Virus record (IMG/VR): IMGVR_UViG_3300029310_000003
Reading direction: 5' to 3' (one strand)
From: a virus
Length of the DNA stretch: 64,000 bases
Shown here: in pieces, positions 6,431 through 63,723 of the stretch
Numbering within the stretch: position 1 is the first letter of the stretch
How the letters are laid out: every line of letters begins with the position of its first letter
Position numbers and translations under genes: made by a program
The notes under the pieces: model-generated
Told to the model about the DNA's origin: nothing
Databases searched by the model: none
Seen by the model: the letters and a program-made list of their open reading frames with translations, nothing else

Positions 6431-6610
6431 AAAATTTCCACGGCATCTGGAAAACCGGAAAAGGCTGTGCTATGATGGAAAAACAGGGGCGGCAGGATTC
6501 CAACAATCGGAGCCGCCCGAATCACAGAACAGAACATTTTCGTGACCTCACGAAAATGCTGCAAAACCAAGAAAAATAATGAATTCCAAGAAAGGGTGGG
6601 AGGACAGAAC

Positions 6611-7360
6611 GTGGCGGAACTGACTTTGATCTTTTGTGTAGTTGTCGTTGTGATTATTTTCGCAATATGTTCCGGAGCCGATCAGGCGAAGGAAAAACTG
6701 GCCATCATGGAAGCAAGCAATCAGAAAATCGAAGCAAGCAAGAAGGAGCTTGTATCGGCAGGTTTTCAGATTGAAAAAGAGGCCAAGGAACCAAGCGGAA
6801 ATTTCTATCTCGCCATCGACCCGAAAAACAAGCGCTGGGTGCTGGTCATACCGAATCTGCCGCATCCATACGTCTATAAGTTCAAAGAATTGATCTCCTA
6901 TGAGCTGGTAGACGACGGAGAAACGACGTATTCGAGCAATACGGGAAAAGCACTCGTCGGCGGACTTCTCTTCGGAGCCGCAGGCGCGGTCGTTGGAGCA
7001 GCCGGCAAGAAAAAAGTAAAAACGACCTGCAAGGATATGCATATCGACTTGAATATAAACGTCATAAAAAGCCCCATGCAGGTCTTGCAGATCAACGACG
7101 CGGAAATCTCGCGGGATTCCGAGCTGTATAAGCAGAACCTGGCATTCGCAAAAAACGTCATGGCCATGCTTGCATACATCAAAGAAAACGCGGAGCTTTC
7201 GGAGCCGGAGAAACCCCATCCGGAGCAAAAGCAGCTCGAAAGCCAGCAGAGAACGGGCGATATCTACGCAGAGATTGAAAAGCTCCACACTCTGAAGGAA
7301 AAGGGCATCATCACCGAAGAGGAGTTCCAGAAAAAGAAGCGTTCCCTTCTCGGCATATAA
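6611..7360 (+). CDS. membrane protein with C-terminal SHOCT domain
   Basis: GTG start after a GGGTGGGAGGA RBS. N-terminal TM 'LTLIFCVVVVVIIFAI'. The C-terminal 'IEKLHTLKEKGIITEEEFQKKKRSLL' matches the SHOCT pattern. Confidence 0.7.
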   Translation: MAELTLIFCVVVVVIIFAICSGADQAKEKLAIMEASNQKIEASKKELVSAGFQIEKEAKEPSGNFYLAIDPKNKRWVLVIPNLPHPYVYKFKELISYELVDDGETTYSSNTGKALVGGLLFGAAGAVVGAAGKKKVKTTCKDMHIDLNINVIKSPMQVLQINDAEISRDSELYKQNLAFAKNVMAMLAYIKENAELSEPEKPHPEQKQLESQQRTGDIYAEIEKLHTLKEKGIITEEEFQKKKRSLLGI

Positions 7361-7363
7361 CAA

Positions 7364-7387
7364 AAGCCGCCCAACCGGGCGGCTTTC
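7364..7387 (+). terminator. hairpin aagccgccc-aacc-gggcggctt (copy 1 of a perfect 24-nt direct repeat)
   Basis: Lies directly after the stop of the SHOCT gene. The identical 24-mer recurs at 7728-7751. Confidence 0.5.
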
Positions 7388-7389
7388 CG

Positions 7390-7418
7390 TTGACAAGGCG
7401 AAATTTCGACGATAAAAT
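7390..7418 (+). promoter_or_regulatory. sigma-A-type promoter of toxin mRNA 1
   Basis: TTGACA 7390-7395, 17-nt spacer, TAAAAT 7413-7418. Confidence 0.55.
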
Positions 7419-7495
7419 AAAAAAGCCCCATTGGGGCGGGGCGCTGCCAAGGAGGCGGCAGGCGGTCGGCACTTCCTGAAAAGGAGGTGTTGCTT

Positions 7496-7582
7496 ATGGT
7501 GACATATTCCGATCTGATTCAGATTGGTATTTTGATCGTAGGCATTTGCTCTCTGGTTTTCCAGATAAGCAAAAAGAAATGA
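7496..7582 (+). CDS. 28-aa holin-like toxin peptide (type I toxin-like), copy 1
   Basis: MVTYSDLIQIGILIVGICSLVFQISKKK: one TM span plus a KKK tail, typical of the 'putative holin-like toxin' peptides of Firmicutes. The AGGAGG RBS sits inside an 8-bp hairpin (cacttcct-GAAA-aggaggtg, 7470-7489). Confidence 0.7.
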   Translation: MVTYSDLIQIGILIVGICSLVFQISKKK

Positions 7583-7665
7583 CCGTCCCAAGTTAGCCGC
7601 TCGGACGGTCATTCTTTGTAAAATGATCTTTAACTACGGCTGACTGCCTGCGGCAGCGCCCTTGT
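7570..7665 (-). ncRNA. candidate antisense (antitoxin) sRNA of TA-like module 1
   Basis: Minus-strand TTGACT (7693-7698) followed by TAATATAAT (about 7668-7676). The transcript would run convergently into the shared terminator. Its 5' segment gggcgctgccgcaggcagtcagcc is conserved in copy 2. Confidence 0.4.
7578..7613. terminator. bidirectional terminator hairpin shared by toxin mRNA 1 and its antisense RNA
   Basis: 11-bp stem aatgaccgtcc/ggacggtcatt. A T-run follows on the minus strand; the plus-strand T-run is weaker. Confidence 0.6.
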
Positions 7666-7727
7666 TTATTATATTAACAGCTTGCACAAAAAAGTCAAGC
7701 GAAAAGAGGAAAACAATAAACACTGAG

Positions 7728-7751
7728 AAGCCGCCCAACCGGGCGGCTTTC
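7728..7751 (+). repeat. copy 2 of the perfect 24-nt direct repeat aagccgcccaaccgggcggctttc
   Basis: Identical to 7364-7387. The two copies bracket TA-like module 1 with a 364-bp period. Confidence 0.8.
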
Positions 7752-8217
7752 GCCATCTATCAAGCCTCGCAGGATGCGAAAACCAGCGCAGCTTGAGATC
7801 GAGTCGAATGCGCGGATGCATCTGGCGTGCCGTAGGAAGCCATAGAAGCAGAGAACAAGGTGTTATGAGTATCCTATCATTATTTCATCAAGTTCGCGGC
7901 TTGTAGAGCCTCTGAGGGCGCGAGGCTTGCTGGGAAAACGCCACGAAAAAGGCAGCAAGTCGGAAAAACAAGAACAGTCTCGAAAATCTCACCCTGAACT
8001 CCACCGTAAAGGTGAGCAGACACGGCGAAGAAATCCTGCTGCAAAAAGCGACCATCGCAGGCCGAAAGCGTCCCGTTTGGGTATCGTGGTCTGACCGCAT
8101 CTACTACACCACCGCGCAGGTGAAAAACCGAGGATATAAGCTTCACACAGTCGCTTGAAATCCCGAAAAATCCTGCTATACTGAAATAAAACGGAAAAAG
8201 GAGGAAGCAAAACGCGA

Positions 8218-13542: not shown

Positions 13543-14628
13543 ATGAGCTTCCCCAAAGCGTATGAAAAATTTCGGTCGGCCATGATCGCCTACGAAGATA
13601 ACCTCCGGGCGTTGGGACGTTCCGGAGTCACGATCAAAAATCAGGAACAGATCTTCAAAAATTTCTCCGGCTTCCTTCTGGAAAACAAATTGTGGGATCA
13701 TGAGGAGGGCTTTCCGGAGATCCTCGCATGGCGCGACCAGATGCGCCGGGACGGCAAAAAACCGTCCACCATCAAGCAGTATCTGACCGTCCTTTCTGCC
13801 ATGTACAATTTCGCCAGCTCCGAAGAACTCGGCGAAAACCGCTGGTACGACCGGAATCCCGTCGCAAAGCTCCTCATGCCGGATACGCGAAAGCTCGACA
13901 AGCGACCGTATGAGCAATTTTTGACCGACGAACAGGTCATGCTTCTCTGGCGAAATAACCCTCCCGCGAAAACCGTGGAAAGCCCGAAATTCTGGCCGCG
14001 AAATTACGCCATCGTCATTTTGCTTCTGACAACGGAGCTTCGCAACAGTGAGCTTCTGGCGCTGACGCCTGCGGATCTCGACTGGGAAAATTCCGAGCTG
14101 TACGTCGAGCACGGCAAGGGCGATAAATTCCGTCCGGTCGAATTCCCGCCGCTTGCGCAGACCGCCGTCCGGCTGTATCTTCGCAGCGGACTGCGTCCGG
14201 CGGCCGCAGGCGACCATGACCCGCTTTTTGGCACGGAGGCAACCAAGGAATTCAAGGGAACCAATCGGGGCGCAGAATGGCACGCAGGCACACGTCAGTG
14301 GCTTTCGGACGTCGTGAAGCGCCATGTAAAAACCGTGACCGGCGTGGATATGATCCGTTCGCACGATTTGCGGCACGTCGGCGCACGGCTCGATCTCAAC
14401 AGCGGCATGAGCTTTGAGGAGCTTCAGGCAAAACTCGGCCATGAATCCGTAGCGACCACGCAGATCTATTCCGGCAAGCTGACCAGCCGGAAAAACCGCC
14501 GTATGACGAAGATCGTGCAGGAGGAGAAGGAACGGCAGGCGCAGCGGAACGTCCTGCGTCTGGAAGAGTCGGGAGATGATTTTTTCGAACAGCTCCGGCT
14601 GAAACAGCCCCGGCCGGAGATCGCCTGA
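13543..14628 (+). CDS. int: tyrosine recombinase / phage integrase
   Basis: 361 aa. N-terminal SAM-like core-binding region. C-terminal 'HDLRHVGARL...LGHESVATTQIYSG' carries the HxxR...H...Y catalytic signature. Confidence 0.9.
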   Translation: MSFPKAYEKFRSAMIAYEDNLRALGRSGVTIKNQEQIFKNFSGFLLENKLWDHEEGFPEILAWRDQMRRDGKKPSTIKQYLTVLSAMYNFASSEELGENRWYDRNPVAKLLMPDTRKLDKRPYEQFLTDEQVMLLWRNNPPAKTVESPKFWPRNYAIVILLLTTELRNSELLALTPADLDWENSELYVEHGKGDKFRPVEFPPLAQTAVRLYLRSGLRPAAAGDHDPLFGTEATKEFKGTNRGAEWHAGTRQWLSDVVKRHVKTVTGVDMIRSHDLRHVGARLDLNSGMSFEELQAKLGHESVATTQIYSGKLTSRKNRRMTKIVQEEKERQAQRNVLRLEESGDDFFEQLRLKQPRPEIA

Positions 14629-14941: not shown

Positions 14942-15015
14942 GTGCGTGTAGTTTAATGGCAGAACATCAGACTTCCAATCTGATGGTGGGAGTTCGATTC
15001 TCCTCACGCACTCCA
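14942..15015 (+). tRNA. tRNA-Gly (anticodon UCC), CCA encoded
   Basis: Manual cloverleaf: acceptor gtgcgtg/cacgcac, D-stem gttt/gaac, anticodon stem tcaga/tctga with loop cTTCCaa, T-arm gggag-ttcgatt-ctcct, then tCCA. Confidence 0.85.
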
Positions 15016-16025: not shown

Positions 16026-16101
16026 GGGCCGTTATCTCAAAGGCTAGAGCAACTCGCTCATAACGGGTAAAATCTCGGTTCGACTCCGGGACGGCCCACC
16101 A
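16026..16101 (+). tRNA. tRNA with CAU anticodon (elongator Met or Ile2), CCA encoded
   Basis: Acceptor gggccgt/acggccc, anticodon stem actcg/cgggt with loop ctCATaa, T-arm ctcgg-ttcgact-ccggg, then aCCA. Lacks the three G-C pairs of an initiator anticodon stem. Confidence 0.8.
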
Positions 16102-20350: not shown

Positions 20351-20469
20351 CCCCATTTCAGAAAAAATTTTCAAATCAGCGGGACAAATCAAAAACCGGC
20401 GCTTTCGCACCGGCTTTCCATTCCCATTTCTATTGACATTTTCAAATAACCTGTTAATATAATAGACAA

Positions 20470-20557
20470 GGGCGCTGCCGCAGGCAGTCAGCCGAAGTGA
20501 ATCATCTCAAAAAAAGAAATGACCGTACCGGGCTGGGTAAGCGGTCATTTCTTTTTG
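20470..20557 (+). ncRNA. candidate antisense (antitoxin) sRNA of TA-like module 2
   Basis: TTGACA 20433-20438 and TATAAT 20458-20463 on the plus strand. Conserved 5' gggcgctgccgcaggcagtcagcc. Ends at hairpin 20518-20550 plus a T-run. Confidence 0.4.
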
Positions 20558-20631
20558 CAAATCTGAACGATCAGACCAGCAAAGCCGATGAGTACGAGCG
20601 AAAAGGTAAAAACCTCATTCCATGTAACCAT
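20545..20631 (-). CDS. 28-aa holin-like toxin peptide (type I toxin-like), copy 2
   Basis: MVTWNEVFTFSLVLIGFAGLIVQICKKK. Has the same SD-sequestering hairpin and a 5' UTR about 90% identical to copy 1, although the coding sequence is diverged. Confidence 0.7.
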   Translation of the reverse strand: MVTWNEVFTFSLVLIGFAGLIVQICKKK

Positions 20632-20708
20632 CCGCATCACCTCCTTTTCAGGAAGTGCCGACCGCCTGCCACCTCCGTGGCAGCGCCCCGCCCCATTGGG
20701 GCTTTTTC

Positions 20709-20737
20709 ATTCTAGCATCCATGTCAAAACGTGTCAA
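20709..20737 (-). promoter_or_regulatory. sigma-A-type promoter of toxin mRNA 2
   Basis: Minus-strand TTGACA 20732-20737, 17-nt spacer, TAGAAT 20709-20714. Confidence 0.55.
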
Positions 20738-20740
20738 TAT

Positions 20741-20771
20741 AAGAAAAAACCGGAGGACTTCCGTCCTCCGG
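20741..20771 (-). terminator. terminator of the lysis/late operon
   Basis: ccggaggac/gtcctccgg stem, with T-runs on both strands. Confidence 0.7.
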
Positions 20772-20783
20772 CTCTTTTTATCC

Positions 20784-22286
20784 CTACGTCCTTTTCACAT
20801 ACTGCTTGGAAACGTAGCCTTCCTTACCGCCTGCCGTCCGTACATAATACCAGTTCTCTGTCTGATATCCGTACCATGTGACGACCTCGCCGAATTTCAG
20901 CACCGTTTTGACCGCCGTCGAGATCCCGGCTCCCGCCCGGAGATTCAGCGCGCTTGCCGTTACCTTCAGCCGCACACCCTTCGCGGCGGACTTGTCCGTC
21001 TCCGCCCAGCTTTCGGTTTTCGCAGGCTTCGAGGGCTTGACCGGCCCTACGGACCTGCTGAGATAGTTCCCGCTTCCGCCCTTGAGCCAAATTCCGACGA
21101 ACCCGCGAAGCTTGTTCGCTCTGGCCCATGCCTTGGAGGGGATGGCGTATCCGCTGGAGCTTCCGCCGTCGAGATTGATGGCGAAATCGTAGCCCTCGGA
21201 AACGAACTTGTTCGCCACGACCTCCAGATTCACGGGATTCTGCGTCACGAGGATTCCGAGTACATCGCCCTTGAGGCCCATCGCCGTGCGGTAGCGGTTT
21301 CCCTCAAGCCCCTTGGGAACCGTGAAGGACTTTTCACCGCCGAGAACGAGCGCGGGGTAGCCCCCGACCGCATCGGGCGAGGAAACGGCGCTGTAGCCCT
21401 CCTGAATGGGCGTCCGGTAATTCGAGAAGCCGATAAACGGCTGCCACCCGCGATATTCCATCTCTCCATGATGCACCACGCCGGAAGCCGGCGTGTAATT
21501 GGAATAATTGAAAAGCTCCGCGTTTATGACGATATCCGGCGCACGCCCGTTCCATTTTGCGCGAACGGCCGCGCTTGTGAGATATTCGCCTCTTGCGCCA
21601 TCCATGCGGATGTGTTCCATCCGTTCGATGCAGGAAAACGGGACTTCGGCAAAAATTCCTCCCTGGAAGGAGCCGTACCGAACGCTTTTCAGCTCCGTCC
21701 GCTCCGGGATACCGGAAATTTTGGAGACTACGTCCCACTTGGGCCGTCCGATCCCGCCGATGGCCGCAGAATTCCGATAGTACCACTTCTTGAAAACGCC
21801 GCCTCCGTTCGGGATCACCGTGTTTTCTCCGGAGCCGGTGTTTCCTTCGATGGTGTAAATTTTCGCGCTGTCCACCTTATAGACAATTCCCGTGTGCGTC
21901 ATGTTTCCGGGAGAACCGAAGAAGATCTGATCTCCCTCCTGAACCTTGGAGACCGGAACGCTCTGGCCTGCATCCCGGAAATAATTGTAGGACATCGTGC
22001 ATCCGGCTCCGTAGAGGCCCTTCGGCTGGCACGTCATCTCCATTCCGGCGGAAAACCCGAACGCCGTGATAAAGCACCAGTCCACGAACATATCGCACCA
22101 TGCGTAGCCCTGCTTGGAGGCATTGTAGGTCCCCCATTTTGCATGATCCCGCGCATATTTCGTGTAATTGTTCCGTCCGGCGTTGGCCGTTTTGTCGTCG
22201 AGCTGGGCGTTCGTAGCCTTTTCGAGATAACCGACCTCGTTTTCGGCCACGGAAAGCAGCTTTCTGATTGCCTCGGAGACCGTCAT
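20784..22286 (-). CDS. endolysin: CHAP + phosphodiester-glycosidase (NAGPA/DUF2233-like) + SH3b
   Basis: CHAP Cys/His context ('GYAWCDMFVDW', 'HTGIVY'); middle 'INAELFN...AINLDGGSSSGY'; C-terminal 'LNLRAGAGISTAV...WYYVRTAGGKEGYVSKQYV' SH3-like. Confidence 0.85.
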   Translation of the reverse strand: MTVSEAIRKLLSVAENEVGYLEKATNAQLDDKTANAGRNNYTKYARDHAKWGTYNASKQGYAWCDMFVDWCFITAFGFSAGMEMTCQPKGLYGAGCTMSYNYFRDAGQSVPVSKVQEGDQIFFGSPGNMTHTGIVYKVDSAKIYTIEGNTGSGENTVIPNGGGVFKKWYYRNSAAIGGIGRPKWDVVSKISGIPERTELKSVRYGSFQGGIFAEVPFSCIERMEHIRMDGARGEYLTSAAVRAKWNGRAPDIVINAELFNYSNYTPASGVVHHGEMEYRGWQPFIGFSNYRTPIQEGYSAVSSPDAVGGYPALVLGGEKSFTVPKGLEGNRYRTAMGLKGDVLGILVTQNPVNLEVVANKFVSEGYDFAINLDGGSSSGYAIPSKAWARANKLRGFVGIWLKGGSGNYLSRSVGPVKPSKPAKTESWAETDKSAAKGVRLKVTASALNLRAGAGISTAVKTVLKFGEVVTWYGYQTENWYYVRTAGGKEGYVSKQYVKRT

Positions 22287-22591
22287 CCTTCCCCACCTCC
22301 GTAAAGCTCGTGGTGGAGCGTCAGCACCGCAGACTCGATCATTTTGTCCACGGTCGCATCGTCAAACCGAATGCCCTTCGAGGCCAGATATTGCAGAACA
22401 TACGCCTTTTTCTCCTGACCCTGATCGGATCTATAGAGCTGCTCTGCCGCCCGAACGGCGATCTCCACCACCGACTGCCACTTTTTCAGCTTTTCCGAAC
22501 CGATCTTCTCCTTCAGCCACGGAACGAGAAACGCCGAGACCAGCGCCGAAATCAGCGCAAGGAACGTTGTAATGATCTTTGTGTAATCCAT
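22283..22591 (-). CDS. holin, LL-H family-like
   Basis: N-terminal TM 'IITTFLALISALVSAFLVPWL' followed by a helical 'AVRAAEQLY...GQEKKAYVLQYL' tail. Directly upstream of the endolysin with a 4-nt overlap. Confidence 0.7.
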   Translation of the reverse strand: MDYTKIITTFLALISALVSAFLVPWLKEKIGSEKLKKWQSVVEIAVRAAEQLYRSDQGQEKKAYVLQYLASKGIRFDDATVDKMIESAVLTLHHELYGGGEG

Positions 22592-22604: not shown

Positions 22605-22877
22605 TCAATCCTTCAAAACCGTTTCGAGAATTCTGCTCGTGCTTTCAATTCCGTACCGGTCCGCCAGCTTTTCCACGAATTTCAGCGCGTACTTGCTCCG
22701 GTTTTCATTTTTGGCCTTCCAGAAATAAAAGCCGGTCGCAGCACCGCACTCCGCGATCCACGCGCAGAGCACCGCCGCAGCGGAGCTTTTGTCCGACTCC
22801 GCCAGAAAAACGAAGATCAGCACCGCCAGCACGAAATACGAAAAAACGAGAATTTTCTTGCTCCATTCCATTCTCAT
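22605..22877 (-). CDS. two-TM membrane protein of the lysis cassette (90 aa)
   Basis: ATG overlaps the upstream stop (ATGA). TMs 'ILVFSYFVLAVLIFVFL' and 'AAVLCAWIAECGAATGFYFW'. Confidence 0.55.
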   Translation of the reverse strand: MRMEWSKKILVFSYFVLAVLIFVFLAESDKSSAAAVLCAWIAECGAATGFYFWKAKNENRSKYALKFVEKLADRYGIESTSRILETVLKD

Positions 22878-23179
22878 GACACCACTTCCCATTCGTCCAC
22901 TTCCCTCTTGATCTTGTCGATGAAGGAATTTCCGTGGAGCGCCTTGTATGCGTCGTACTCGTACTGGAAATTTTCCGACTCATACTGCCGAATTTTCTGT
23001 TTTTCCTTGTTTTTGTAGTAGGTGTGCAGCATATCGGCGCGAAGCTGACATTTCATCCCATCCTTGATGGCTTTTGAGCCAAGCACACGCTCCCGCAGCG
23101 GCCGGACGAGCGCGACCAGCAAAACGCCGATGGTCGTAATTCCTCCGCAGACCGATACCACGTCCTTGAAAACTTCCAT
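22874..23179 (-). CDS. single-TM membrane protein (101 aa)
   Basis: Internal ATG (MEVFKDVV...) 7 nt after GGAG. TM 'VCGGITTIGVLLVALV'. Confidence 0.5.
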   Translation of the reverse strand: MEVFKDVVSVCGGITTIGVLLVALVRPLRERVLGSKAIKDGMKCQLRADMLHTYYKNKEKQKIRQYESENFQYEYDAYKALHGNSFIDKIKREVDEWEVVS

Positions 23180-28638: not shown

Positions 28639-31600
28639 TCACATATTTTTCTGGATCGCCAGCGTCGCCGCAGACCGCGCGAAATCCGCCACACTCATGC
28701 CTCGTGCGCGTCCCTCGGAGATCGTCACCCCTCCGAAGCTGTAAAAGCTGCATCCGTTCTGCTGTGTACCGACGTGGTGATCGTCATACGTCGAGCCTGC
28801 GAAAACGTTGGAATTCCGCAGATCTCCGCAGAGCGCCGCGCGCATCCGGTCCATCCCGCGCTCAAACCGCGCGTCCGCCTGCGGGACCAGAAGCATATTC
28901 TGGATGGCCCTTGTGATGTCCGGCGGCAGCACCATTTCCGGCTCCGCCGTAGCCTTGATCCCGCCGATCCCTTCGAGGATTCCGCCCCGGTCGTATACCG
29001 TGTAGACCTTTCCGTCCTTCTTCGTGATGGAGGTCGTCCCGTCGTAGTTTTTCAGCCACGACGTGCCGTCTCCGCCGGTCATTCTGGCTCCCGCCGCCTC
29101 GTAATTGAGGAAATCCAGACCCTTCTTGGAGCTGATGGTGTACCGGGAGCCGTCCTGCGCGTAGGCGTAGACCGTCCCGCTGTATTTCAGTCCGCTTCCG
29201 GAGCCGCCGGAGCCGCCGGAGCCTCCGGAGGAATCCCCACCCGGCGGCGCGTCGTACTGTCCGCCGTAATTGTAGGTGGTCTGATTTTTGTCCACCAGCT
29301 GAGACTGATACGTTCCGTCCGGATTGACGCCGATAATTTCATAAGTGCCGCCGCCTGTGACCACGCGGTCGCCCACGGAAAGCCCGGAGGGCGCTTTTCC
29401 GTCCGCGCCGACCTTCACGATGCGGTTTGCCGTTTCGTTCACCGCATCGGAGAGCTTCGACACGTCCACGCCGAACTGCCGGAAAATGTCCGCGTTTTCG
29501 AGAATGATCTTTTTCAGCTCCGGCGTCGCATTTTTCCAGATGTCCTGCAGGATCTCCCCGATCCCGCGCGTCTTGGCCTTGAGCGAATCGAGGAAATTGT
29601 TGTACTGCCGTTCCAGCGCGTCATACTGCGCGTTGATGGCGTCCTTCCGCGCCTCAATTTCCGCCACAGCCGCGTTGTACGCCAGATCGTCCTGAAAATC
29701 CTTGAGGTCCTTTTCAGCCTTTTCCAGAGAATCCTTCGCAGACTTGACGTTTCCCTCGTCCGCGACCCATTCCCACTGTCCCGTCGAAGCGTTCCACTGC
29801 CGGACCGTCCGCTCGTTCTGAGCGTTCGCAAGGTCCGCCTGTGCCTTCTGAACTGCGAGAATTTTTTCCTCCAGCGTCAGCTGGTCGTCCTTTGTCTCCT
29901 TCTGCCGTTTGAGCGCGTCGAGCTGCGCGTCCAGCGCGGCCAGCTCCGCATCCCTCGCATCCTGCTGGGAGCTGAGAGAATCCTGCATCGCATCCTTCAG
30001 CTCCGAAAGCAGGTCGTCCATGCTCTTCGTCTGCTCTTTGATCTTTTTCTGCCAGTCGTACCATTCCGAGGAAAGGTCGTTGATGTCGGCCTGACTGGCT
30101 CCGATGGAGCGCATATAATCCGCCTGTGCGGAAAGCGCGTCCTGAATTTCGCGCATTTTGGCCTTCTGCGCGTCCTCGCTGGCTCCCTGCTTTTCCAGCA
30201 GCGTCAGCTCGGATTTCAGCAGCGTCACGCGTTCCTTGTGCGCTGTCAGCGTCGCATCCGACGAGCTTCCGCCACCACCGGAGCCGGAACCCTTGGAACC
30301 GGAGCTGCCGGACTTGTTCCACGAACTTTCGCTGTAATCAAAGGAATCGTAAATCCCCTGAAGAAGCTTCTGTTCGCCCTCTTCATAGCTTCCTACCTGT
30401 CCGGTTTGAATCCATCCCTTGATGGTCCTGTCCGCGTCGGAGGATTTGATCCCGCTGATCGATGCAATGGAAGCCGCCGTTGCACCCGCCGCGCGTCCAA
30501 GCGCAACGACCTGCGCGATCTGCGCGGAAAGGTCAAGTCCCGTCTCGTTGAGCTTGATGATCTCCAGCGCCAGATCGTAAAGCGCTTTTCCGGAGTATCC
30601 GGCATTTTCCGCAACATCGAGCAGGGAAGAAACGAATTTCGCTGCCGCCTCGTCCGCGCTGGACGAAGCGCCGATCTGCTGCTGTGTCGCGTCCACATCC
30701 TCGAGGATCGCACTTGCCACCGCCTTGAGCGATTCTTCCGTGATCCGAAGCTGTCCGTCCTCGTCGGTCAGCATCTCCACATATTTATCACTCAGCCCGA
30801 TCAGGCTCTGCAGCGTGGAGGCGGAGATATTTCCGTTGATGCGGTATTCACCGAGCGCCGCCGATACCGCCGCAAGGTCGCTTTGCTGTGTTTTCAGCGC
30901 CTTGCCGTATTCCTGAATTTTCGAGACCTTTTCAGAAGTTTTCTGATTGTTCTCATCTGTGAGCTGATTGTTCTCCTCCAGCAGCTCATTTTCGCGCCCG
31001 TAACTGTCCAGAGTCCCGTCGCGCACCGCCTGAAGCTTGTTTTCCAGCTCCGTCTGATTCGCAATGGCTGTGTTATAATCCTCGACTGCCGACTTGACGC
31101 CGTTTATGAGCTTTTCATTGCTGGAATACTGGTTTTCGCCGAAAATTTTCGTTGCGTCCTGTTTTCCTGCATCGATTAGTTCCTTGCGGGCTTCCAGATT
31201 TTTCTGATAGTCCTTGATAACGGCTTCTGCACTGTCCAGTTCCAGCGCACCTGCCATCTGCGAACCGTAGGTGTCCTCCGCTGCGGCAATGAGCGCCTTT
31301 TCCGCCGCGATCGTCGCAGCCTTTGCGTCGTAAAGAGCCGCCTCGAGGGCCGATTCCGTAGAGGCCCGAATTGCCTCGTCCAGACTTCCGTATTTTGCCG
31401 TCAGATCGTCTACGCTTTCCTTTTCGTATCCGAGTTTTTTCAGCAGCCGGTCCGTCGCGTCCTCGAAGTCCTTTTTGGAGCCGGCACCGGTCTCATAGGA
31501 GCTTTTCAGATCGGAATAGGTCTGGTAGAGAGACTGAATTTCCTCGGCCTCCCGAGCCGCAGCCTTTCCGGCTTCCAGCGCTTTTTGCCGTGCTTCCTCC

Positions 31601-33546
31601 TGTGCGCTTTTTATTTTGTTGACCGCAAAAATGAGAATCCCAATTGCGGCTGTAACAGCGCCGATGGCCAGCTGCGTCGCAGAAAGGGAGATATTCAGCG
31701 ACTGCATGACCGCGCTGAACGACGATGCACTCACGCCCGCCGTCTTAAAGATCGTCACAAGTCCAGAAACGGCGCTTCCGATTTTTACAAACGTCGCAAC
31801 GACGCTGTTCCATTTCGCGGCAAGCAGGAAACCGCTGACGATCAGGAGCACATTTCCAAGATTGTCAAACCCGTCGATCAGCCACGTCAGCGCGTCCACA
31901 AGCCCCTTGATCCAGCTCGTGTCGATGGTTTTCGCAATAAATTCCGTCCATGTGTTTTTCAGCTGATTTGTCTTGGCTTCCCAGCTCGTCAGCATAATGC
32001 CGACTTCCTTATCCGCGCTTCCTGCCGCCGAAGCCACCTTATCGAGCATTTCGGCGTACATGTCGTAATTTTTAATGAGCGCGTCGAGCTGGTTCGTTCG
32101 AAGCTTGCCTCCAAGCTTTGTCTCGATCTCGGCCAGCTGTGCCTGCGTCAGAACGCCGTCCTTATACGCCTCTGCCAGCGCCGCAACGGCCTTCATCGGA
32201 TCGACGATCTTTCCCGCCGCATCCGCAGCCTTCATCGCGTCCTCCGCATAGATCCAGAGAACGTCGTTCAGCCCCTCGATCTCCTCCTTTGTCCACGTCA
32301 CGCCGTCCTCGATCTCGGTCTCGGTATCGCCGATGATGTTGAGGATCAGCGCGCGGAGCGCCGTCGCCGCCTTCGAGCCGGATTCCTGCGTGACCGCCGT
32401 GATCGTGCCGAGCGCCGCCATTGTCTCATCAATGGACATATTCGCCATCGACGCCACATTCGCAACGATTGGGAAGCCTTCGGCCAGCTTCTGAATGGAG
32501 GTCGCGTATTTATTTTCAATTTCGTTGGCCCTGTCGAGAACGCCGGAAAGCTCCTCGACATTGCCCTTCATCTTATAGGCCGCGTCCGCAGAAAGCAGGA
32601 ACTGATTCGCGGTCGCGGAGTTCACATCGCCGACGAGCTGCGTCTTGGTCGCCAGCTCCGCCATGTCCTCCGACATTTCTTTGTAACCGGCCTTCGCAAA
32701 CGTTCCCACGGATTCCAGATAATCCGCCACAGCCACGCCATACTGCGACGCGACCTCGTATGCGTGTTCGCTGAGACTGGCCATTTCCGCGTCGGTGTTG
32801 TTCGTCACCTTCTGGATCGCAACCAGCTCCGTGTCCACTTCCTTCATCGTCGCCAGCGCTTCCTTGAAGGAACGAATAACCGTGGCCACCGTTGCATTGA
32901 ACACCTGCCACGCAGCGACCTTTTTCAGGATGTTTCCAAGACTGTCTCCAAGGACGTTTGTTGATTTTTGCAGCTTTTCGGTGTCTGCCTTGGTCTGTGA
33001 AAATTCTGAACGCAGGCCAGCCAGCCCAGATTTCGCATCCTCCACGCTGTTCATCAACGTGTAGAATCCGCTGCTTCCGTCCTTCACGCCGTTTGCCAGC
33101 GCGTCCAGCTCCGTTCTGGCCTGTGCGACTCTTTCGGAAAGCCCGTCAAACGTACCTTTCGGATATTTCGCAGACGCGGCCGCTATGGAGTTTGCAAGAT
33201 CCGCATACTGCTTTTGGAGCGCCGGAATGCTGTTTTTTGCGTTCGTGAACCGCTGCTGCTCCGCCTTGTATGCGCGCTGTGACGCCTTTTCCGCCGCAGC
33301 CGCCGCTTTTCCCGCAGCTTTCTCCGTCTGTTCATAGTGCTGCGTAAACTTCCCGCGCAGACTATCTACGTTCTGCACCATCGTCTGCACAGAACGATTG
33401 AATTGGTTGATCGCCTCCATTCCGGAAGAATCCACCGTGACCTTGATTTTCTGCTCCTTCAAGCTGTTTACGTCCTTGATGAGCGTATCGAGCTGTGTCC
33501 GAACGACCTCTACTTGAAGCTGGACCTTATCCACATTTCCGGCCAT
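28639..33546 (-). CDS. tail tape measure protein
   Basis: 1635 aa, coiled-coil rich. Core 'IQKLAEGFPIVANVASMANMSIDETMAALGTITAVTQESGSKAATALRALILNI' is typical of TP901-type TMPs, with TM-like segments in the middle. Confidence 0.9.
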   Translation of the reverse strand: MAGNVDKVQLQVEVVRTQLDTLIKDVNSLKEQKIKVTVDSSGMEAINQFNRSVQTMVQNVDSLRGKFTQHYEQTEKAAGKAAAAAEKASQRAYKAEQQRFTNAKNSIPALQKQYADLANSIAAASAKYPKGTFDGLSERVAQARTELDALANGVKDGSSGFYTLMNSVEDAKSGLAGLRSEFSQTKADTEKLQKSTNVLGDSLGNILKKVAAWQVFNATVATVIRSFKEALATMKEVDTELVAIQKVTNNTDAEMASLSEHAYEVASQYGVAVADYLESVGTFAKAGYKEMSEDMAELATKTQLVGDVNSATANQFLLSADAAYKMKGNVEELSGVLDRANEIENKYATSIQKLAEGFPIVANVASMANMSIDETMAALGTITAVTQESGSKAATALRALILNIIGDTETEIEDGVTWTKEEIEGLNDVLWIYAEDAMKAADAAGKIVDPMKAVAALAEAYKDGVLTQAQLAEIETKLGGKLRTNQLDALIKNYDMYAEMLDKVASAAGSADKEVGIMLTSWEAKTNQLKNTWTEFIAKTIDTSWIKGLVDALTWLIDGFDNLGNVLLIVSGFLLAAKWNSVVATFVKIGSAVSGLVTIFKTAGVSASSFSAVMQSLNISLSATQLAIGAVTAAIGILIFAVNKIKSAQEEARQKALEAGKAAAREAEEIQSLYQTYSDLKSSYETGAGSKKDFEDATDRLLKKLGYEKESVDDLTAKYGSLDEAIRASTESALEAALYDAKAATIAAEKALIAAAEDTYGSQMAGALELDSAEAVIKDYQKNLEARKELIDAGKQDATKIFGENQYSSNEKLINGVKSAVEDYNTAIANQTELENKLQAVRDGTLDSYGRENELLEENNQLTDENNQKTSEKVSKIQEYGKALKTQQSDLAAVSAALGEYRINGNISASTLQSLIGLSDKYVEMLTDEDGQLRITEESLKAVASAILEDVDATQQQIGASSSADEAAAKFVSSLLDVAENAGYSGKALYDLALEIIKLNETGLDLSAQIAQVVALGRAAGATAASIASISGIKSSDADRTIKGWIQTGQVGSYEEGEQKLLQGIYDSFDYSESSWNKSGSSGSKGSGSGGGGSSSDATLTAHKERVTLLKSELTLLEKQGASEDAQKAKMREIQDALSAQADYMRSIGASQADINDLSSEWYDWQKKIKEQTKSMDDLLSELKDAMQDSLSSQQDARDAELAALDAQLDALKRQKETKDDQLTLEEKILAVQKAQADLANAQNERTVRQWNASTGQWEWVADEGNVKSAKDSLEKAEKDLKDFQDDLAYNAAVAEIEARKDAINAQYDALERQYNNFLDSLKAKTRGIGEILQDIWKNATPELKKIILENADIFRQFGVDVSKLSDAVNETANRIVKVGADGKAPSGLSVGDRVVTGGGTYEIIGVNPDGTYQSQLVDKNQTTYNYGGQYDAPPGGDSSGGSGGSGGSGSGLKYSGTVYAYAQDGSRYTISSKKGLDFLNYEAAGARMTGGDGTSWLKNYDGTTSITKKDGKVYTVYDRGGILEGIGGIKATAEPEMVLPPDITRAIQNMLLVPQADARFERGMDRMRAALCGDLRNSNVFAGSTYDDHHVGTQQNGCSFYSFGGVTISEGRARGMSVADFARSAATLAIQKNM

Positions 33547-50483: not shown

Positions 50484-50636
50484 TCAGCTCCGCGCGATTT
50501 CCTTCTTCTCGATTACCCTCGCGCTGATCTCCACCACGCGGATCAGATCTTTCGTCCGCTGAATTTCAACGTTTTTCCAGTCGTTCAGCGCCTTGTTAAT
50601 CGCCGGAAGATCTTTTTCCGTCAGAAATTCAATCAT
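50484..50636 (-). CDS. hypothetical small protein (50 aa)
   Basis: GGAGG RBS. MIEFLTEKDLPAINKALNDWKNVEIQRTKDLIRVVEISARVIEKKEIARS. Overlaps the portal stop by 8 nt. Confidence 0.4.
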   Translation of the reverse strand: MIEFLTEKDLPAINKALNDWKNVEIQRTKDLIRVVEISARVIEKKEIARS

Positions 50637-52380
50637 TCGTACCTCCGTACTGGTCGATCATCGTCTCGCTTCCGTCCGCCGTCACGGTTCCGTCGCCCTT
50701 CGGCCGTCCGGGAGACTGCGGCGGCAGTCCCGAGGAATCCTGCTTCATGTTGTATGCCGTCACCAGCGGCAGCCGCTTGTCGAGGATACCGCTGTTGTAG
50801 ACCGCATCCGACAAACACAGATCGTCCAGCATCGACCGGTCAAGCAGCGCGTTATAAAGAATGGTGTCCGGCAGAATTCCGTGTTCCATCCCATTCATGC
50901 ACCGTTCGAGCGTTTTTTCATCCTCCGCAATATCTCCAAACATGACGAATTTCCAGTCGTATTTGAGGTTGAGCTTTTTGATAATGGCATTCATCATCCG
51001 CTCAAAATCGCGGTAGACCGTCTGCATGAACTTACTTTCGATCTGAAGCGAGATCTGTGCCGTTCCTGCCTTCGGATCGTCTCCCAGTGGAATGATCGCG
51101 CCCATACCCGCCTGACTCATCGTGTCGCTGTAGCCCTGCTTCACAATATCCATTGCCGACGGAGCTTCCGACAGGCTTTCCAGTTTCATATTTTCAAACG
51201 GAGCCGCATACAGGCCGATTCCGCTTGTACTGTTCATCTGCAGCATGTCGTACCAGATTGCTTCAAACAGAAGCCGTCCGGCGTTACTGAGTTTGTATTG
51301 ATCCTCAGATGACGCTGCTTTGTCGTCCCGATAGGGAATTTCTCCGTGCAGGAGGCTCACAAGCGGATTCTGGATCAATTCCAGCTGGATCTGTTCCATC
51401 TGCGCCAGCTGGATCATGTTCAGGAAGAGTCCCGCGAACGGCGAGATTGCCGTCCGGCTCACATCGTCCGCTTCAAACGGGAAAACCGAATCGACCGGCA
51501 GATAGACCCAGTAATACCATCGTCCGTTCTGATAATAGACGTCCGGTGTCCCCGGTATATCGCCCATCGCCTGAATCCGCTGGAATTTTTGCATGTCAAT
51601 GCGCGTTTTCTGCGCAAAAACAACGCTTGTTCCCGTTCCTTCCGGCTTCTGCACCACGCTTCCAAAGTCGTACAGATACGGCAGAAACAGCTCTCCGAAC
51701 TGTTCCGGCACGCATCCCGGCTGCAGGAAGTACATCATGTTGAAGGCGACCGTATATTTGGAAACGTTATTATATCCCGTGATCTTCGTCCAGTCGCTGG
51801 GCAGCTGCTGCATGAATGCGTAGTTCACCTTGTTGTGGCTCTTGTCCACGCTGTAGCGCGGGTAGTAGAAAACCTTGCCTTCTACCCCGACCTGCCCGAC
51901 GATCTGGTGCGCGTTTTCCTTGGGCTTGAATTCCTCCCGGAGCTTTTCCGTCAGCTTCCATTCCCGCAGGAAATCGTCCTTTTTCGTATCCTCTCCGGAT
52001 ACCATTCTCGGCATCACATAGCTGTGATAGGTCAGCAGATTCTGGTACGTTTTCCGGATGTGAAACAGTGGATATGCCGTGTATTCCAGAATGTGCGATA
52101 CCTGCCGGAGCGGCTGCTCGCTGTCATACGGAGCCGTGAGCATCTCGCCGACCTTGTCTTTCGTGAAATTGACCGGCAGAGAGGATATCTGCTTGACGCG
52201 GCGATTTTGAATGTAGGGATTTGCCATCCCGTAGCGGCCGGCATTGATCCCGGCAAATGCCGTCGAGATCGCGCTCATCGGCATCCCCTGATTTTCTGCC
52301 GCCATCGTCCGGAGCTTTTCAAAGATCTGCGGGAATGCGGCGTATTGGAGCTTATTCAGTTCACTTGTCTCTATCGCCAT
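50629..52380 (-). CDS. putative portal protein
   Basis: 583 aa, between the terminase large subunit and the scaffold-like gene. Start MAIETS lies 8 nt after GGAGGA. Confidence 0.65.
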   Translation of the reverse strand: MAIETSELNKLQYAAFPQIFEKLRTMAAENQGMPMSAISTAFAGINAGRYGMANPYIQNRRVKQISSLPVNFTKDKVGEMLTAPYDSEQPLRQVSHILEYTAYPLFHIRKTYQNLLTYHSYVMPRMVSGEDTKKDDFLREWKLTEKLREEFKPKENAHQIVGQVGVEGKVFYYPRYSVDKSHNKVNYAFMQQLPSDWTKITGYNNVSKYTVAFNMMYFLQPGCVPEQFGELFLPYLYDFGSVVQKPEGTGTSVVFAQKTRIDMQKFQRIQAMGDIPGTPDVYYQNGRWYYWVYLPVDSVFPFEADDVSRTAISPFAGLFLNMIQLAQMEQIQLELIQNPLVSLLHGEIPYRDDKAASSEDQYKLSNAGRLLFEAIWYDMLQMNSTSGIGLYAAPFENMKLESLSEAPSAMDIVKQGYSDTMSQAGMGAIIPLGDDPKAGTAQISLQIESKFMQTVYRDFERMMNAIIKKLNLKYDWKFVMFGDIAEDEKTLERCMNGMEHGILPDTILYNALLDRSMLDDLCLSDAVYNSGILDKRLPLVTAYNMKQDSSGLPPQSPGRPKGDGTVTADGSETMIDQYGGTND

Positions 52381-52732
52381 TTTCCGCATCCTCCGCCGTT
52401 CCGGCCTGCTTTCTGCGTTCTTCTGCCAGCGCGCTTGACAGCTCGTCGATCATCCGGCTCAGATTCTCCATTGTTTTCGGCTTTTCCTTTTCCAGCCGTT
52501 CCCGCAGAAGCGCCGTCGCGCAGCTCATGATCCAGTCTTCGTCTGCCTTCGTCAGCCGCTTCACGTTTTCTCCGTCGATCTCCATGCCGCCCTCTGGCCG
52601 AGCACCCGCCGTATAGATCAGGATGTATCCCGGCGCGATCCTGCTGAACCGTTCGCGCATCGCCGTTTCCACAGCCTCCTGTGTCACGCGCAGCGCATAT
52701 AGCCGGTATACCTTCGTCTGATCTTCTGTCAT
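52361..52732 (-). CDS. hypothetical protein (123 aa)
   Basis: ORF track entry, between TerL and the portal gene. Confidence 0.5.
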   Translation of the reverse strand: MTEDQTKVYRLYALRVTQEAVETAMRERFSRIAPGYILIYTAGARPEGGMEIDGENVKRLTKADEDWIMSCATALLRERLEKEKPKTMENLSRMIDELSSALAEERRKQAGTAEDAENGDRDK

Positions 52733-62116: not shown

Positions 62117-62689
62117 TCAAATCGTCAGCTCATAATCATCGCCAGCGGCTGAATCCCCTTCTCCGTTCTCCTGCGGTTCCTCACCCTGCATGTTCTGGCA
62201 AAGCTCCCAGAACGCATCCACAAATCCCGTGTTAAAGGCCCGCATGAATTCGCTCCGGTCGTGGATATAGCCCTTCGACATCGCGTTTGCAAACGCCGTC
62301 CAGAGGCAGTCCACCATTTCCTCCCGATAACTGTCGCTCTGAATGGCGATCTGCTCGATCCGAAGCTCCGTCCATGTTTTGTTCTCGCCCGCGCCGTTCT
62401 GATAGTCCTTGCTGGACCACTTACCGGCGATCAGAACGTGGTCGCCCTTTCTTACGCGCTGTGCGATATTCGTCTGCGGGCTTTCTCCGACGGAAATGAT
62501 GTTCATGAAGCGCTTGTCCTCGTATGCCACGCCGAATGTGACCTTTGGCATCGGAGGCCGCGTGTCGGAGCCTTTTGTGTACTCGACCTTTGCGTCCCGC
62601 GTGACCTTTCCCCAGATCACCATGGTTTCGCAGGTTTTTCTTTTTGGGTCCTTGGGGTCTGCAATGATCGCGCTGTTGATCGGCCTCAT
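62117..62689 (-). CDS. SSB-like OB-fold protein with acidic C-terminal tail
   Basis: Lies between RecT and RusA. OB-like 'VIWGKVTRDAKVEY...KGDHVLIAGKWSSKDY'. The acidic end is 'GDSAAGDDYELTI'. Confidence 0.5.
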   Translation of the reverse strand: MRPINSAIIADPKDPKRKTCETMVIWGKVTRDAKVEYTKGSDTRPPMPKVTFGVAYEDKRFMNIISVGESPQTNIAQRVRKGDHVLIAGKWSSKDYQNGAGENKTWTELRIEQIAIQSDSYREEMVDCLWTAFANAMSKGYIHDRSEFMRAFNTGFVDAFWELCQNMQGEEPQENGEGDSAAGDDYELTI

Positions 62690-63723
62690 CCTTCACCACC
62701 GCCGAAAAAGCCGTCGTCCATGGATTCCATATCGATCTTTTTGGGCTTACTTGCGGCTGCTGCTCTCGGCTGCTTTTTCACTGCTTCCTGAACTTTTTCC
62801 GGCTTGGCATCTTTCCGGCGCGTCAGTTCCTCTTCCACCGCCGCAGTTTCAAAGAACTCTTCTTCCTGCACCGCCTCGATGGCTGGAGTGTTCTCCGTTG
62901 TGCCAGTCACCTCTCCGGTAGCCTTGTCCACGTTTATGATTGGAATGTCCGGAATTACACCATCTTCGGAGTCGCTTTCCATTGCATAGCGGATTTCATT
63001 GGAAAGCGGCGCATAACCGGAGTTCAGGAGGCTGCGGAGAACGGTTTTACGGCACATCTTGTCTTGCCCATACCCAACGTCGTTCCAAGGTGAGGATTTC
63101 CGCATCTTTTCTTCCTCTTCTTTTGTCATTTCCCCAGAAGTGAACTTTTTGAACTTTTCAAGATCAAACGCTTGTGAATACCGATCTGCATGGAACAGGA
63201 GCTTGTTCATCGACCAAAATTCCGGTCGGAACATTCCATCTTTCAATTCGAAATAGGCATAGTACCCGATTACTTGTGCTGCTTCACGCTCTTCATCCGT
63301 AGAGTAAACGTTGAAGTCAAATTTTGGCTTTCCAGTGCGCGAATCGCGTCCCATGTACTCGCCTTCTCGGATATCAAGGCAATCTATATCGTGGTACTGC
63401 TTAGTCGCAAGAGCCAGCGCAATATAGCCTTTATACGAAATGATAAAATTACACATCCGCCCGAAGGGAACCAAATGGTAGTGAATGTTGAGTATCAGGC
63501 CCATTCCTTCTCCGCGCAGTGCAGCTGCTACGACGCTTCCGGGATCACATGCCTTTAACTGGTCAGAAGAATTCACCGCTTGAATCAGCGTCGATGTAAA
63601 TCTCGCCACAACTTTGGGGTCTTTCAAAGATTTTCGGATAAGCTCCTGCATCGCGTTCGACGTGATGGCGCTTGAGAACGTCTGCTTCGGCGCACTGGGC
63701 GTCAGTCTGTTTGCTGCATTCAT
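62686..63723 (-). CDS. recT: RecT-family single-strand annealing recombinase
   Basis: 'LKACDPGSVVAAALRGEGMGL...HLVPFG...ISYKGYIAL...SPW...MCRKTVLRSLL' is the typical RecT pattern. Confidence 0.85.
   Translation of the reverse strand: MNAANRLTPSAPKQTFSSAITSNAMQELIRKSLKDPKVVARFTSTLIQAVNSSDQLKACDPGSVVAAALRGEGMGLILNIHYHLVPFGRMCNFIISYKGYIALALATKQYHDIDCLDIREGEYMGRDSRTGKPKFDFNVYSTDEEREAAQVIGYYAYFELKDGMFRPEFWSMNKLLFHADRYSQAFDLEKFKKFTSGEMTKEEEEKMRKSSPWNDVGYGQDKMCRKTVLRSLLNSGYAPLSNEIRYAMESDSEDGVIPDIPIINVDKATGEVTGTTENTPAIEAVQEEEFFETAAVEEELTRRKDAKPEKVQEAVKKQPRAAAASKPKKIDMESMDDGFFGGGEG

Follow-up and report, generated by a model that had tools for sequence, protein, structure and literature searches.

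In the txpA/RatA system of the Bacillus subtilis skin element, binding of the antisense RNA RatA abolishes the intramolecular helix SL4 of txpA, and the resulting duplex is a substrate of RNase III (PMC3531473, PMC2887945). The annotation "holin-like toxin" corresponds to the TxpA family, in which members of 27 residues have been described (Fozo et al. 2010, PMC2887945), and the family member EF3263 of Enterococcus faecalis has an antisense RNA of ~110 nucleotides (nt) over the 3′ untranslated region (UTR) (PMC2887945). In the par system (fst/RNA II) of E. faecalis pAD1, the toxin RNA, RNA I, contains a stem-loop at the Shine–Dalgarno (SD) sequence (5′-SL) and a helix (5′-UH) that sequesters the 5′ end and stabilises or protects the RNA (PMC7472228). 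The toxin mRNAs of hok/sok and aapA1/IsoA1 have 5′–3′ long-distance interactions in their inert, stable form (PMC8594479). Prophages house TxpA, BsrG, YonT and Clostridioides difficile type I systems (PMC6563280, PMC3531473), and the role proposed for prophage type I systems is to keep the element in the cell (PMC6563280). Here we describe a candidate locus of this kind, module 1, which contains an open reading frame (ORF) of 28 codons and lies in a stretch of viral DNA of 64,000 nt (IMG/VR record IMGVR_UViG_3300029310_000003; hereafter the window).

Module 1 is probably a temperate-phage moron of the type I toxin–antitoxin-like class, with the layout of txpA/RatA. An initial annotation of the DNA had put forward a type I toxin–antitoxin-like module, and the sequence comparisons below support this core reading. 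Judged from these comparisons, the locus is real, non-random and conserved, and the architecture of the mRNA is well supported. Systems of this kind are already known from TxpA/RatA; the main new finding is a conserved and covarying panhandle that joins the 5′ UTR of the toxin mRNA to a block near its 3′ end.

Panhandle and SD hairpin of the predicted toxin mRNA

The full unit is larger than the interval 7390-7700 delineated initially and extends from an upstream hairpin at 7364 to a downstream hairpin ending near 7754. On the plus strand, the toxin promoter TTGACA-17-TAAAAT is present at 7390-7418 as annotated, matches at 11 of 12 positions and has a counterpart in the homologous modules; it predicts the start of the toxin mRNA near 7425. 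Five promoter-like sites occur in the region, compared with 1.1 expected from shuffles. In the RNA folds, the mRNA starts with a 5′-terminal hairpin (GCCCC-AUU-GGGGC, 7425-7437), followed by the 5′ arm of the panhandle, block X (7438-7469), which is composed of X1 (7438-7448), an internal loop (7449-7457) and X2 (7458-7469). X2 abuts an 8-base-pair (bp) hairpin with a GAAA loop at 7470-7489 (CACTTCCT-GAAA-AGGAGGTG, also written CACUUCCU-GAAA-AGGAGGUG), which sequesters the SD sequence AGGAGG (7482-7487). This hairpin had also been recognised in the initial annotation and is conserved with covariation. The ORF (MVTYSDLIQIGILIVGICSLVFQISKKK) occupies 7496-7582, with the ATG at 7496 and the TGA at 7580-7582; ATG 7496 is the real start because the in-frame upstream GTG (7487) sits within the SD and the AGGAGG is spaced 8 nt ahead of the ATG. 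Downstream are a post-stop hairpin with an 11-bp stem and a 14-nt loop, which can be read on either strand (7578-7613), an A/U-rich linker (7614-7636) and the 3′ arm of the panhandle, block Y (7637-7661; Y2 at ~7638-7650 and Y1 at ~7651-7661). The plus-strand RNA 7425-7668 (244 nt) folds with an energy of -122.3 kcal/mol (z = -9.9 relative to dinucleotide-shuffled sequences).

Scans with the exact SD hairpin and the back-translated peptide yielded ~20 distinct related modules. In every module X is complementary to Y, which is located 3′ of the post-stop hairpin and directly before the antisense start, and each of the 18 distinct complete modules has its cognate X:Y duplex. The 5′–3′ panhandle is found in the minimum free energy (MFE) fold of the long RNA in all five module types folded with RNAfold and abuts the SD hairpin in most of them; the window panhandle (7438-7469:7637-7661) appears in both the MFE and the centroid fold. 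Comparison of the long and the short RNA in the seven modules folded at both lengths showed a gain of ~30 kcal/mol from the panhandle. RNAalifold, applied to an unguided MAFFT alignment of 23 modules, recovered the X2:Y2 helix and the SD hairpin with varying pair types (e.g. CG:12, UA:7 and UG:4 at one position). The panhandle helices are paired in 93% and 90% of cells, with compensatory changes at 9 of 21 pairs, and the SD hairpin is paired in 90.6% of cells, with compensatory changes at 3 of 7 pairs. In the controls, slid structures were paired in 36-56%, and none of 500 shuffles reached the observed covariation score.

The strand to which the structures belong was read from duplex energies and wobble pairs. 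The X:Y duplex has a better energy on the plus strand than on the minus strand in 18/18 modules. Counting over the structure gave G·U:A·C ratios of 60:6 for the panhandle, 28:6 for the SD hairpin and 29:60 for the post-stop hairpin, a count that is biased because the structure came from the plus-strand fold. An alignment of X with the reverse complement of Y that uses no pairing rules is free of this bias; its transition mismatches are G·U on the plus strand in 36 cases and on the minus strand in 5. These comparisons place the panhandle and the SD hairpin in the toxin mRNA. Since the G·U wobbles put the panhandle on the toxin strand, the mRNA would have to read through the post-stop hairpin, at least to Y (7661). 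A plausible 3′ end of the full-length mRNA is a downstream plus-strand hairpin with a short U-tract at ~7728-7754, and inspection by eye found a further plus-strand hairpin 10-60 nt past the antisense -35 element in each module, which in the relatives looks like a strong terminator. A plus-strand small RNA carrying Y was rejected as an explanation, with no conserved plus-strand promoter between the post-stop hairpin and Y. The cross-type X×Y matrix of duplex energies is too noisy for conclusions on specificity because all blocks are rich in G+C and share some homology.

The internal loop of the panhandle (7449-7457) and its equivalent in module 2, a paralogue in the window, contain an SD-like AAGGAGGCG, which may be a ribosome standby site or a decoy. 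A conserved switch based on this pseudo-SD was rejected, the element being found in the A and B types only. The relative L036 has an alternative GGAGGG/CCCUCC hairpin where the pseudo-SD is otherwise restricted to these two types.

Predicted antisense RNA gene and putative toxin peptide

Sequence features of the minus strand predict a gene for a cis-encoded antisense RNA, equipped with a promoter and a terminator of its own, whose product would be complementary to the toxin mRNA. The convergent promoter and the ~95-nt RNA of the initial annotation both fit these features: the promoter (TTGACT-16-TAATAT with a TG extension) is located at 7698-7671, with the -10 box at 7671-7676 and the RNA start near 7663, and a near-consensus promoter, TTGAC(A/T/G)-16/17-TAnnnT, is found at the same position in 18/18 modules, with the antisense start 72-89 nt past the stop codon. 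Taking its ends from the promoter and the terminator, the antitoxin RNA would run from 7663 to ~7568 and span the last 4-5 codons, the post-stop hairpin and the 3′ UTR, a geometry that is the same in all relatives. Its predicted fold comprises a small 5′ hairpin, a single-stranded linker and the terminator hairpin (-35.3 kcal/mol, z = -3.4). Y templates the first ~25 nt of this ~95-nt RNA, so that its complementarity to the mRNA takes in the panhandle's 3′ arm. X and Y are repeated in inverted, not direct, orientation. Hence the 5′ end of the antisense RNA reads in the sense of X, and pairing with the region of translation initiation is precluded.

The post-stop hairpin at 7578-7613 had been described as an 11-bp bidirectional terminator. 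The hairpin is there, although its features suggest an antisense terminator in the main rather than the end of the toxin mRNA. Folding of the same 64-nt region on each strand showed that the minus-strand hairpin is more stable in 18/18 modules. The minus-strand U-tract is the complement of the C-terminal KKK codons (7566-7577), and the plus-strand U-tract after the hairpin is absent in many relatives (L008, L022, L035, L036, L045 and L050). On the toxin strand the hairpin would stop transcription only in part, if at all. Read on the opposite strand, the 5′-terminal hairpins of the two mRNAs (7425-7442, minus, and 20685-20702, plus) also look like terminators, followed by T6, and this reading could provide a backstop for antisense read-through.

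The 28-residue ORF is present as annotated. Synonymous and nonsynonymous codon changes among the A-type ORFs stand at 9:2, 7:1 and 8:1; because the changes are mostly synonymous, the ORF is taken to be translated and under purifying selection. As read from its sequence, the peptide has a hydrophobic core (L7-I24) with one predicted transmembrane helix and a KKK tail, in keeping with type I toxins as small hydrophobic peptides of under 60 residues that have a single such helix and a charged terminus. A profile built from the peptides of modules 1 and 2 matched 486 clusters (50% identity, E <= 1e-3), which form a tight family of 27-29 residues with the pattern MVTY[SAE][DE]L[FI]…Q[IV]xKKK. Among the best 150 family members, 65 match Hol_Tox (E <= 0.01; top E = 4.2e-8). 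Comparison of the family profile with the N-terminus of B. subtilis TxpA in hhalign gave E = 8.8e-5 (probability 60%), and TxpA scores 31.3 bits against Hol_Tox. By these comparisons the peptide family is contiguous with Pfam Hol_Tox, the TxpA family.

The module 1 peptide itself scores 19.3 bits (E = 0.001) against Pfam Hol_Tox (PF16935), below the cut-off of 23.3 bits, and the module 2 peptide and the other module types have no match to this model. The resemblance to holin-like toxins proposed initially is carried by the family, which grades into Hol_Tox and TxpA; the window peptides, with scores under the Pfam threshold, are probably distant TxpA relatives. Hol_Tox was the sole match in a Pfam scan of the peptide at E <= 10, in which no Fst/Ldr-type toxin was matched, and NCBIfam gave only weak matches to ComI and PepG1, far under their cut-offs. 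Neither the peptides nor the RNAs are covered by a PHROG, PADLOC, NCBIfam or Rfam model, and both window ORFs appear in NCBI nr solely as "hypothetical protein [Caudoviricetes sp.]". Gene callers frequently over-extend ORFs of the family into translated 5′ UTR.

Second module, relatives and phage setting

Module 2 is located on the minus strand at ~20391-20774, directly downstream of the endolysin gene (22286-20784), from which it is set apart by a strong terminator and its own promoter. Its toxin promoter (20737-20709, RNA start near 20702), SD hairpin (20657-20638), ORF (20631-20545, MVTWNEVFTFSLVLIGFAGLIVQICKKK), post-stop hairpin (20550-20517), Y (20494-20470) and terminator (20414-20391) are on the minus strand, and its antisense promoter (20433-20460) is on the plus strand. 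Comparison of the two copies showed 65/71 identical positions in the 5′ UTR and 43/44 in the block 7637-7680, which contains Y and the antisense -10 element. The ORFs have only 51/87 nucleotides and 10/28 residues (36%) in common, so that conservation is much stronger in the regulatory RNA parts than in the peptide. Because the block of Y and the antisense start is nearly identical, the two antisense RNAs could cross-react at Y with each other's mRNA. The modules are inverted repeats 13 kb apart, and the segment between them could undergo inversion.

All recovered modules come from phage contigs, metagenome contigs and metagenome-assembled genomes (MAGs), among them those of Faecalibacterium, Peptococcaceae and Selenomonadaceae. 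Both modules also occur together on related phage contigs of 80-120 kb (L017 with L021, L024 with L028). The scan of genomes and metagenomes with the exact 20-mer of the SD hairpin gave few matches, several of them random, and the random ones were set aside (L006, L010, L012, L016, L019, L023, L025, L026, L030-L032 and L034). INPHARED phages gave no DNA or protein match, and PLSDB plasmids gave no match.

Scaffold and ORF are associated in more than one way among the relatives. Unrelated short ORFs are found in the same scaffold of X2, identical SD hairpin, post-stop hairpin, Y and antisense promoter (L011, 4388..; L014; and L013, at a contig end); such scaffold ORFs include MPITLTFHLFGLTFTLRIKR (20 residues) in a Faecalibacterium MAG and MRVIKFIVRVIIITGAILLITSGTAA… in a Selenomonadaceae MAG. 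The A-type peptide is found with several different scaffolds (L035, L036 and L049). In L040 (match at ~357-391) and L044, an A′-type and a B-type toxin ORF are head to head, joined at the near-palindromic SD hairpin, and the A′-type copy has lost its promoter and block X; this arrangement looks like a recombination product of two inverted modules. In L039 (match at 1228-1262, minus), a change of TGC to TGA ends the toxin ORF early at codon 18, with the promoters, panhandle, hairpin and antisense promoter intact.

The window is DNA of a temperate tailed gut phage with an integrase and several anti-repressors. The genes include those of the integrase (13543-14628), the endolysin (20784-22286, minus), a Holin_LLH protein (PF09682, 54.9 bits; 22283-22591), which overlaps the start of the endolysin gene, the tape-measure protein (28639-33546), the portal (50629-52389) and RecT (62686-63723). 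Two tRNA genes are located near the integrase gene (14942-15012 and 16026-16098; Rfam scores of 71.5 and 50.8 bits). Just upstream of the Holin_LLH and endolysin genes, a minus-strand ORF of 95 residues with two hydrophobic segments (22605-22892) has no Pfam match and may encode a second holin or an antiholin.

Module 1 is positioned in the accessory/lysogeny region, 13 kb from the lysis genes and directly downstream of a gene for a SHOCT-domain membrane protein (6542-7360). This gene is followed on the plus strand by a terminator-like hairpin, GCCGCCC-AACC-GGGCGGC plus TTTC (7364-7387). The 24-bp copies at 7364-7387 and 7728-7751 are identical (24/24, blastn) and form direct repeats (AAGCCGCCCAACCGGGCGGCTTTC) flanking module 1; a search for an empty site, that is, the insertion site without module 1, gave no match. 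Hairpins like GCCGCCC-N4-GGGCGGC also precede the module in unrelated contexts (L002, L022, L035 and L046). The spacer of the module 1 toxin promoter contains a perfect 10-bp palindrome (CGAAATTTCG, 7399-7408), which is absent from module 2 and the other module types.

Proposed mechanism, alternatives and known systems

In the mechanism we propose, the sigma-A-type promoter at 7390-7418 fires and the toxin mRNA is made from near 7425. Its SD would be locked at once in the GNRA-capped hairpin at 7470-7489, leaving the nascent mRNA translationally silent. Transcription would carry on past the post-stop hairpin, and Y would then pair with X in a panhandle of ~23 bp that buries the region by the 5′-terminal hairpin and stacks on the SD hairpin, giving a stable and inert mRNA. 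The strong convergent promoter (7698-7671) would supply the ~95-nt antisense RNA, which would end at the same hairpin, with its U-tract opposite the KKK codons, as a perfect complement of the last codons, the hairpin, the linker and Y of the mRNA. The linker 7614-7636 is unpaired in both the mRNA and the antisense folds and is the likely nucleation site; pairing would probably begin at this toehold, spread and displace X from Y. The long duplex would be open to RNase III and the 5′ region exposed, so that the mRNA would be destroyed before the 28-residue membrane peptide is made. By analogy with the txpA/RatA duplex and the par 5′ upstream helix, mRNA decay would be the outcome of antisense pairing. 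If the antisense supply ended, as when the prophage is lost, translation of the long-lived mRNA would give a membrane-damaging peptide.

A more specific form of this mechanism is tentative, and we hold it to be more doubtful than the general reading. In it, the antitoxin is a perfect-match mimic of X that strips Y from the panhandle by toehold strand displacement and makes the 5′ region accessible to decay, one RNA chassis serves repeatedly for exchangeable toxin ORFs, the two antitoxins could cross-regulate, and a Gram-positive 3′ antisense RNA is combined with a hok-like end-to-end fold. As to chassis reuse, the two modules share near-identical X and Y with peptides of 36% identity, and other genomes hold unrelated ORFs of 20-26 residues in the chassis. 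The combination of a 3′ antisense RNA with a hok-like end-to-end fold is a design not described in the literature cited.

Several observations weigh against the type I toxin–antitoxin-like reading. Neither window peptide reaches the Pfam Hol_Tox threshold. At the Rfam gathering scores the RNAs have no match, RatA, BsrG and par RNAs included; RatA is not matched even at E <= 10 across 7300-7800, and BsrG reaches 17.7 bits where its gathering score is 55. Modules 1 and 2 have a usable plus-strand U-tract after the post-stop hairpin, and part or most of the toxin transcripts could therefore stop there without Y. In silico, the SD hairpin is closed with or without the panhandle, which leaves the activation of translation unaccounted for. 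The homologous modules are phylogenetically non-independent and represent ~10-12 independent types.

The same U-tracts (ATTCTTTGT in module 1 and ATTTCTTTTTTT in module 2) are the T-rich runs that would suit a short toxin mRNA ending at ~7615 at the bidirectional hairpin, with antisense overlap there alone and with X and Y as the relic of an inverted leader duplication, which would also leave X resembling the antisense 5′ end. A relic, however, would decay symmetrically, and the complementarity has instead been kept by compensatory changes. The toxin-strand G·U bias (36:5 and 60:6), the more stable plus-strand X:Y duplex and the more stable minus-strand post-stop hairpin (18/18 each), and the six relatives named above that lack the plus-strand U-tract further argue against this arrangement, and we give it little credence. 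It is highly improbable that the locus is an RNA-only element, a convergent pair of small RNAs with an untranslated 28-codon ORF. Such an element would agree with the better conservation of the untranslated parts than of the ORF between the window copies, and with relatives in which the ORF of the scaffold is short and unrelated (L011, L013) or prematurely terminated (L039). It would not agree with a peptide family as tight as the 486 clusters with MVTY…Q.xKKK, with codon changes that are mostly synonymous, or with a strong SD at the ideal spacing of 8 nt that is masked by an elaborate conserved device.

Somewhat less remote than a short mRNA, but still unlikely, is a lysis-related or host-modulating peptide (an accessory holin, an antiholin or a superinfection exclusion factor), the synthesis of which the antisense RNA times or gates in the phage cycle. 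Module 2 directly follows the endolysin gene, the L035/L042 module is directly upstream of an ORF read by eye as an amidase-type lysin, and streptococcal and staphylococcal prophages often carry Hol_Tox genes. The founding Hol-Tox protein is said to complement a lysis-defective phage, according to a citation in PMC11357604. The phage, however, already has a canonical Holin_LLH gene (22283-22591) overlapping the endolysin start, and the peptide is not the phage's holin. Each module is insulated by its own promoter and flanking terminators rather than placed in the holin–endolysin cassette, and module 1 is 13 kb off the lysis genes. A site downstream of the lysin is the usual position of morons in Firmicute prophages, which also counts against a role in lysis. 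A constitutive-looking antisense repressor together with a stabilised, silenced mRNA is a hallmark of type I toxin–antitoxin systems, the reading that we prefer.

The two window ORFs exemplify an annotation gap that persists despite hundreds of peptide clusters in public genomes and metagenomes. Recognition as a TxpA/RatA-like type I module would allow annotation of many phage and prophage genomes and would draw attention to genes that resist cloning and may help to maintain prophages or to abort infection. With its covariation-backed panhandle, the unit of ~330 nt would be a compact model for 3′-bound antisense control of an end-paired mRNA.

Comparison with the known systems showed different degrees of likeness. 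The bsrG/SR4, yonT/SR6 and C. difficile (CD0956.2/RCd10) systems are likewise prophage-borne, often several per prophage, and have convergent antisense RNAs, but they have no sequence relationship to the modules and encode different toxins. The proposed mRNA resembles those of hok/sok and aapA1/IsoA1 in that the full-length toxin mRNA would be folded end to end and be inert and stable. Those systems are Gram-negative, their antisense RNAs act on the 5′ region or the translation initiation region, and 3′ processing activates the mRNA, whereas here the antisense RNA would act on the 3′ UTR and is encoded downstream of the ORF, and a local hairpin, not the long-distance helix, covers the SD.

The initial annotation had likened the architecture to both par/fst and txpA/ratA. 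With par, the locus has in common the convergent promoters, the shared terminator hairpin, the SD-sequestering stem-loop and the 5′-end-sequestering helix, the last two as an analogy of design and not as homology. Membership of par/fst did not hold, as the locus lacks both an Fst-type peptide and the DRa/DRb direct repeats, X and Y being inverted; moreover, the 3′ arm of the 5′-end helix here lies past the shared hairpin and is itself an antisense target. The txpA/RatA part of the comparison stood. The differences from txpA/RatA are the length of the window peptides (28 vs. 59 residues), which fall under the Pfam threshold, the absence of sequence or Rfam similarity to RatA or txpA RNAs, and the shorter predicted antisense RNA (~95 nt vs. 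222 nt for RatA), which would probably lie wholly within the 3′ UTR and the end of the ORF. In addition, the 3′ arm of a 5′–3′ panhandle is part of the antisense target here, a feature that the cited papers do not report for txpA. What module 1 shares with txpA/RatA is a small peptide of one helix that starts with M-x-T-Y/F-x-x-L and ends in a basic tail, an antisense RNA that converges on the toxin mRNA and overlaps its 3′ end together with the last part of the ORF, and a prophage location.

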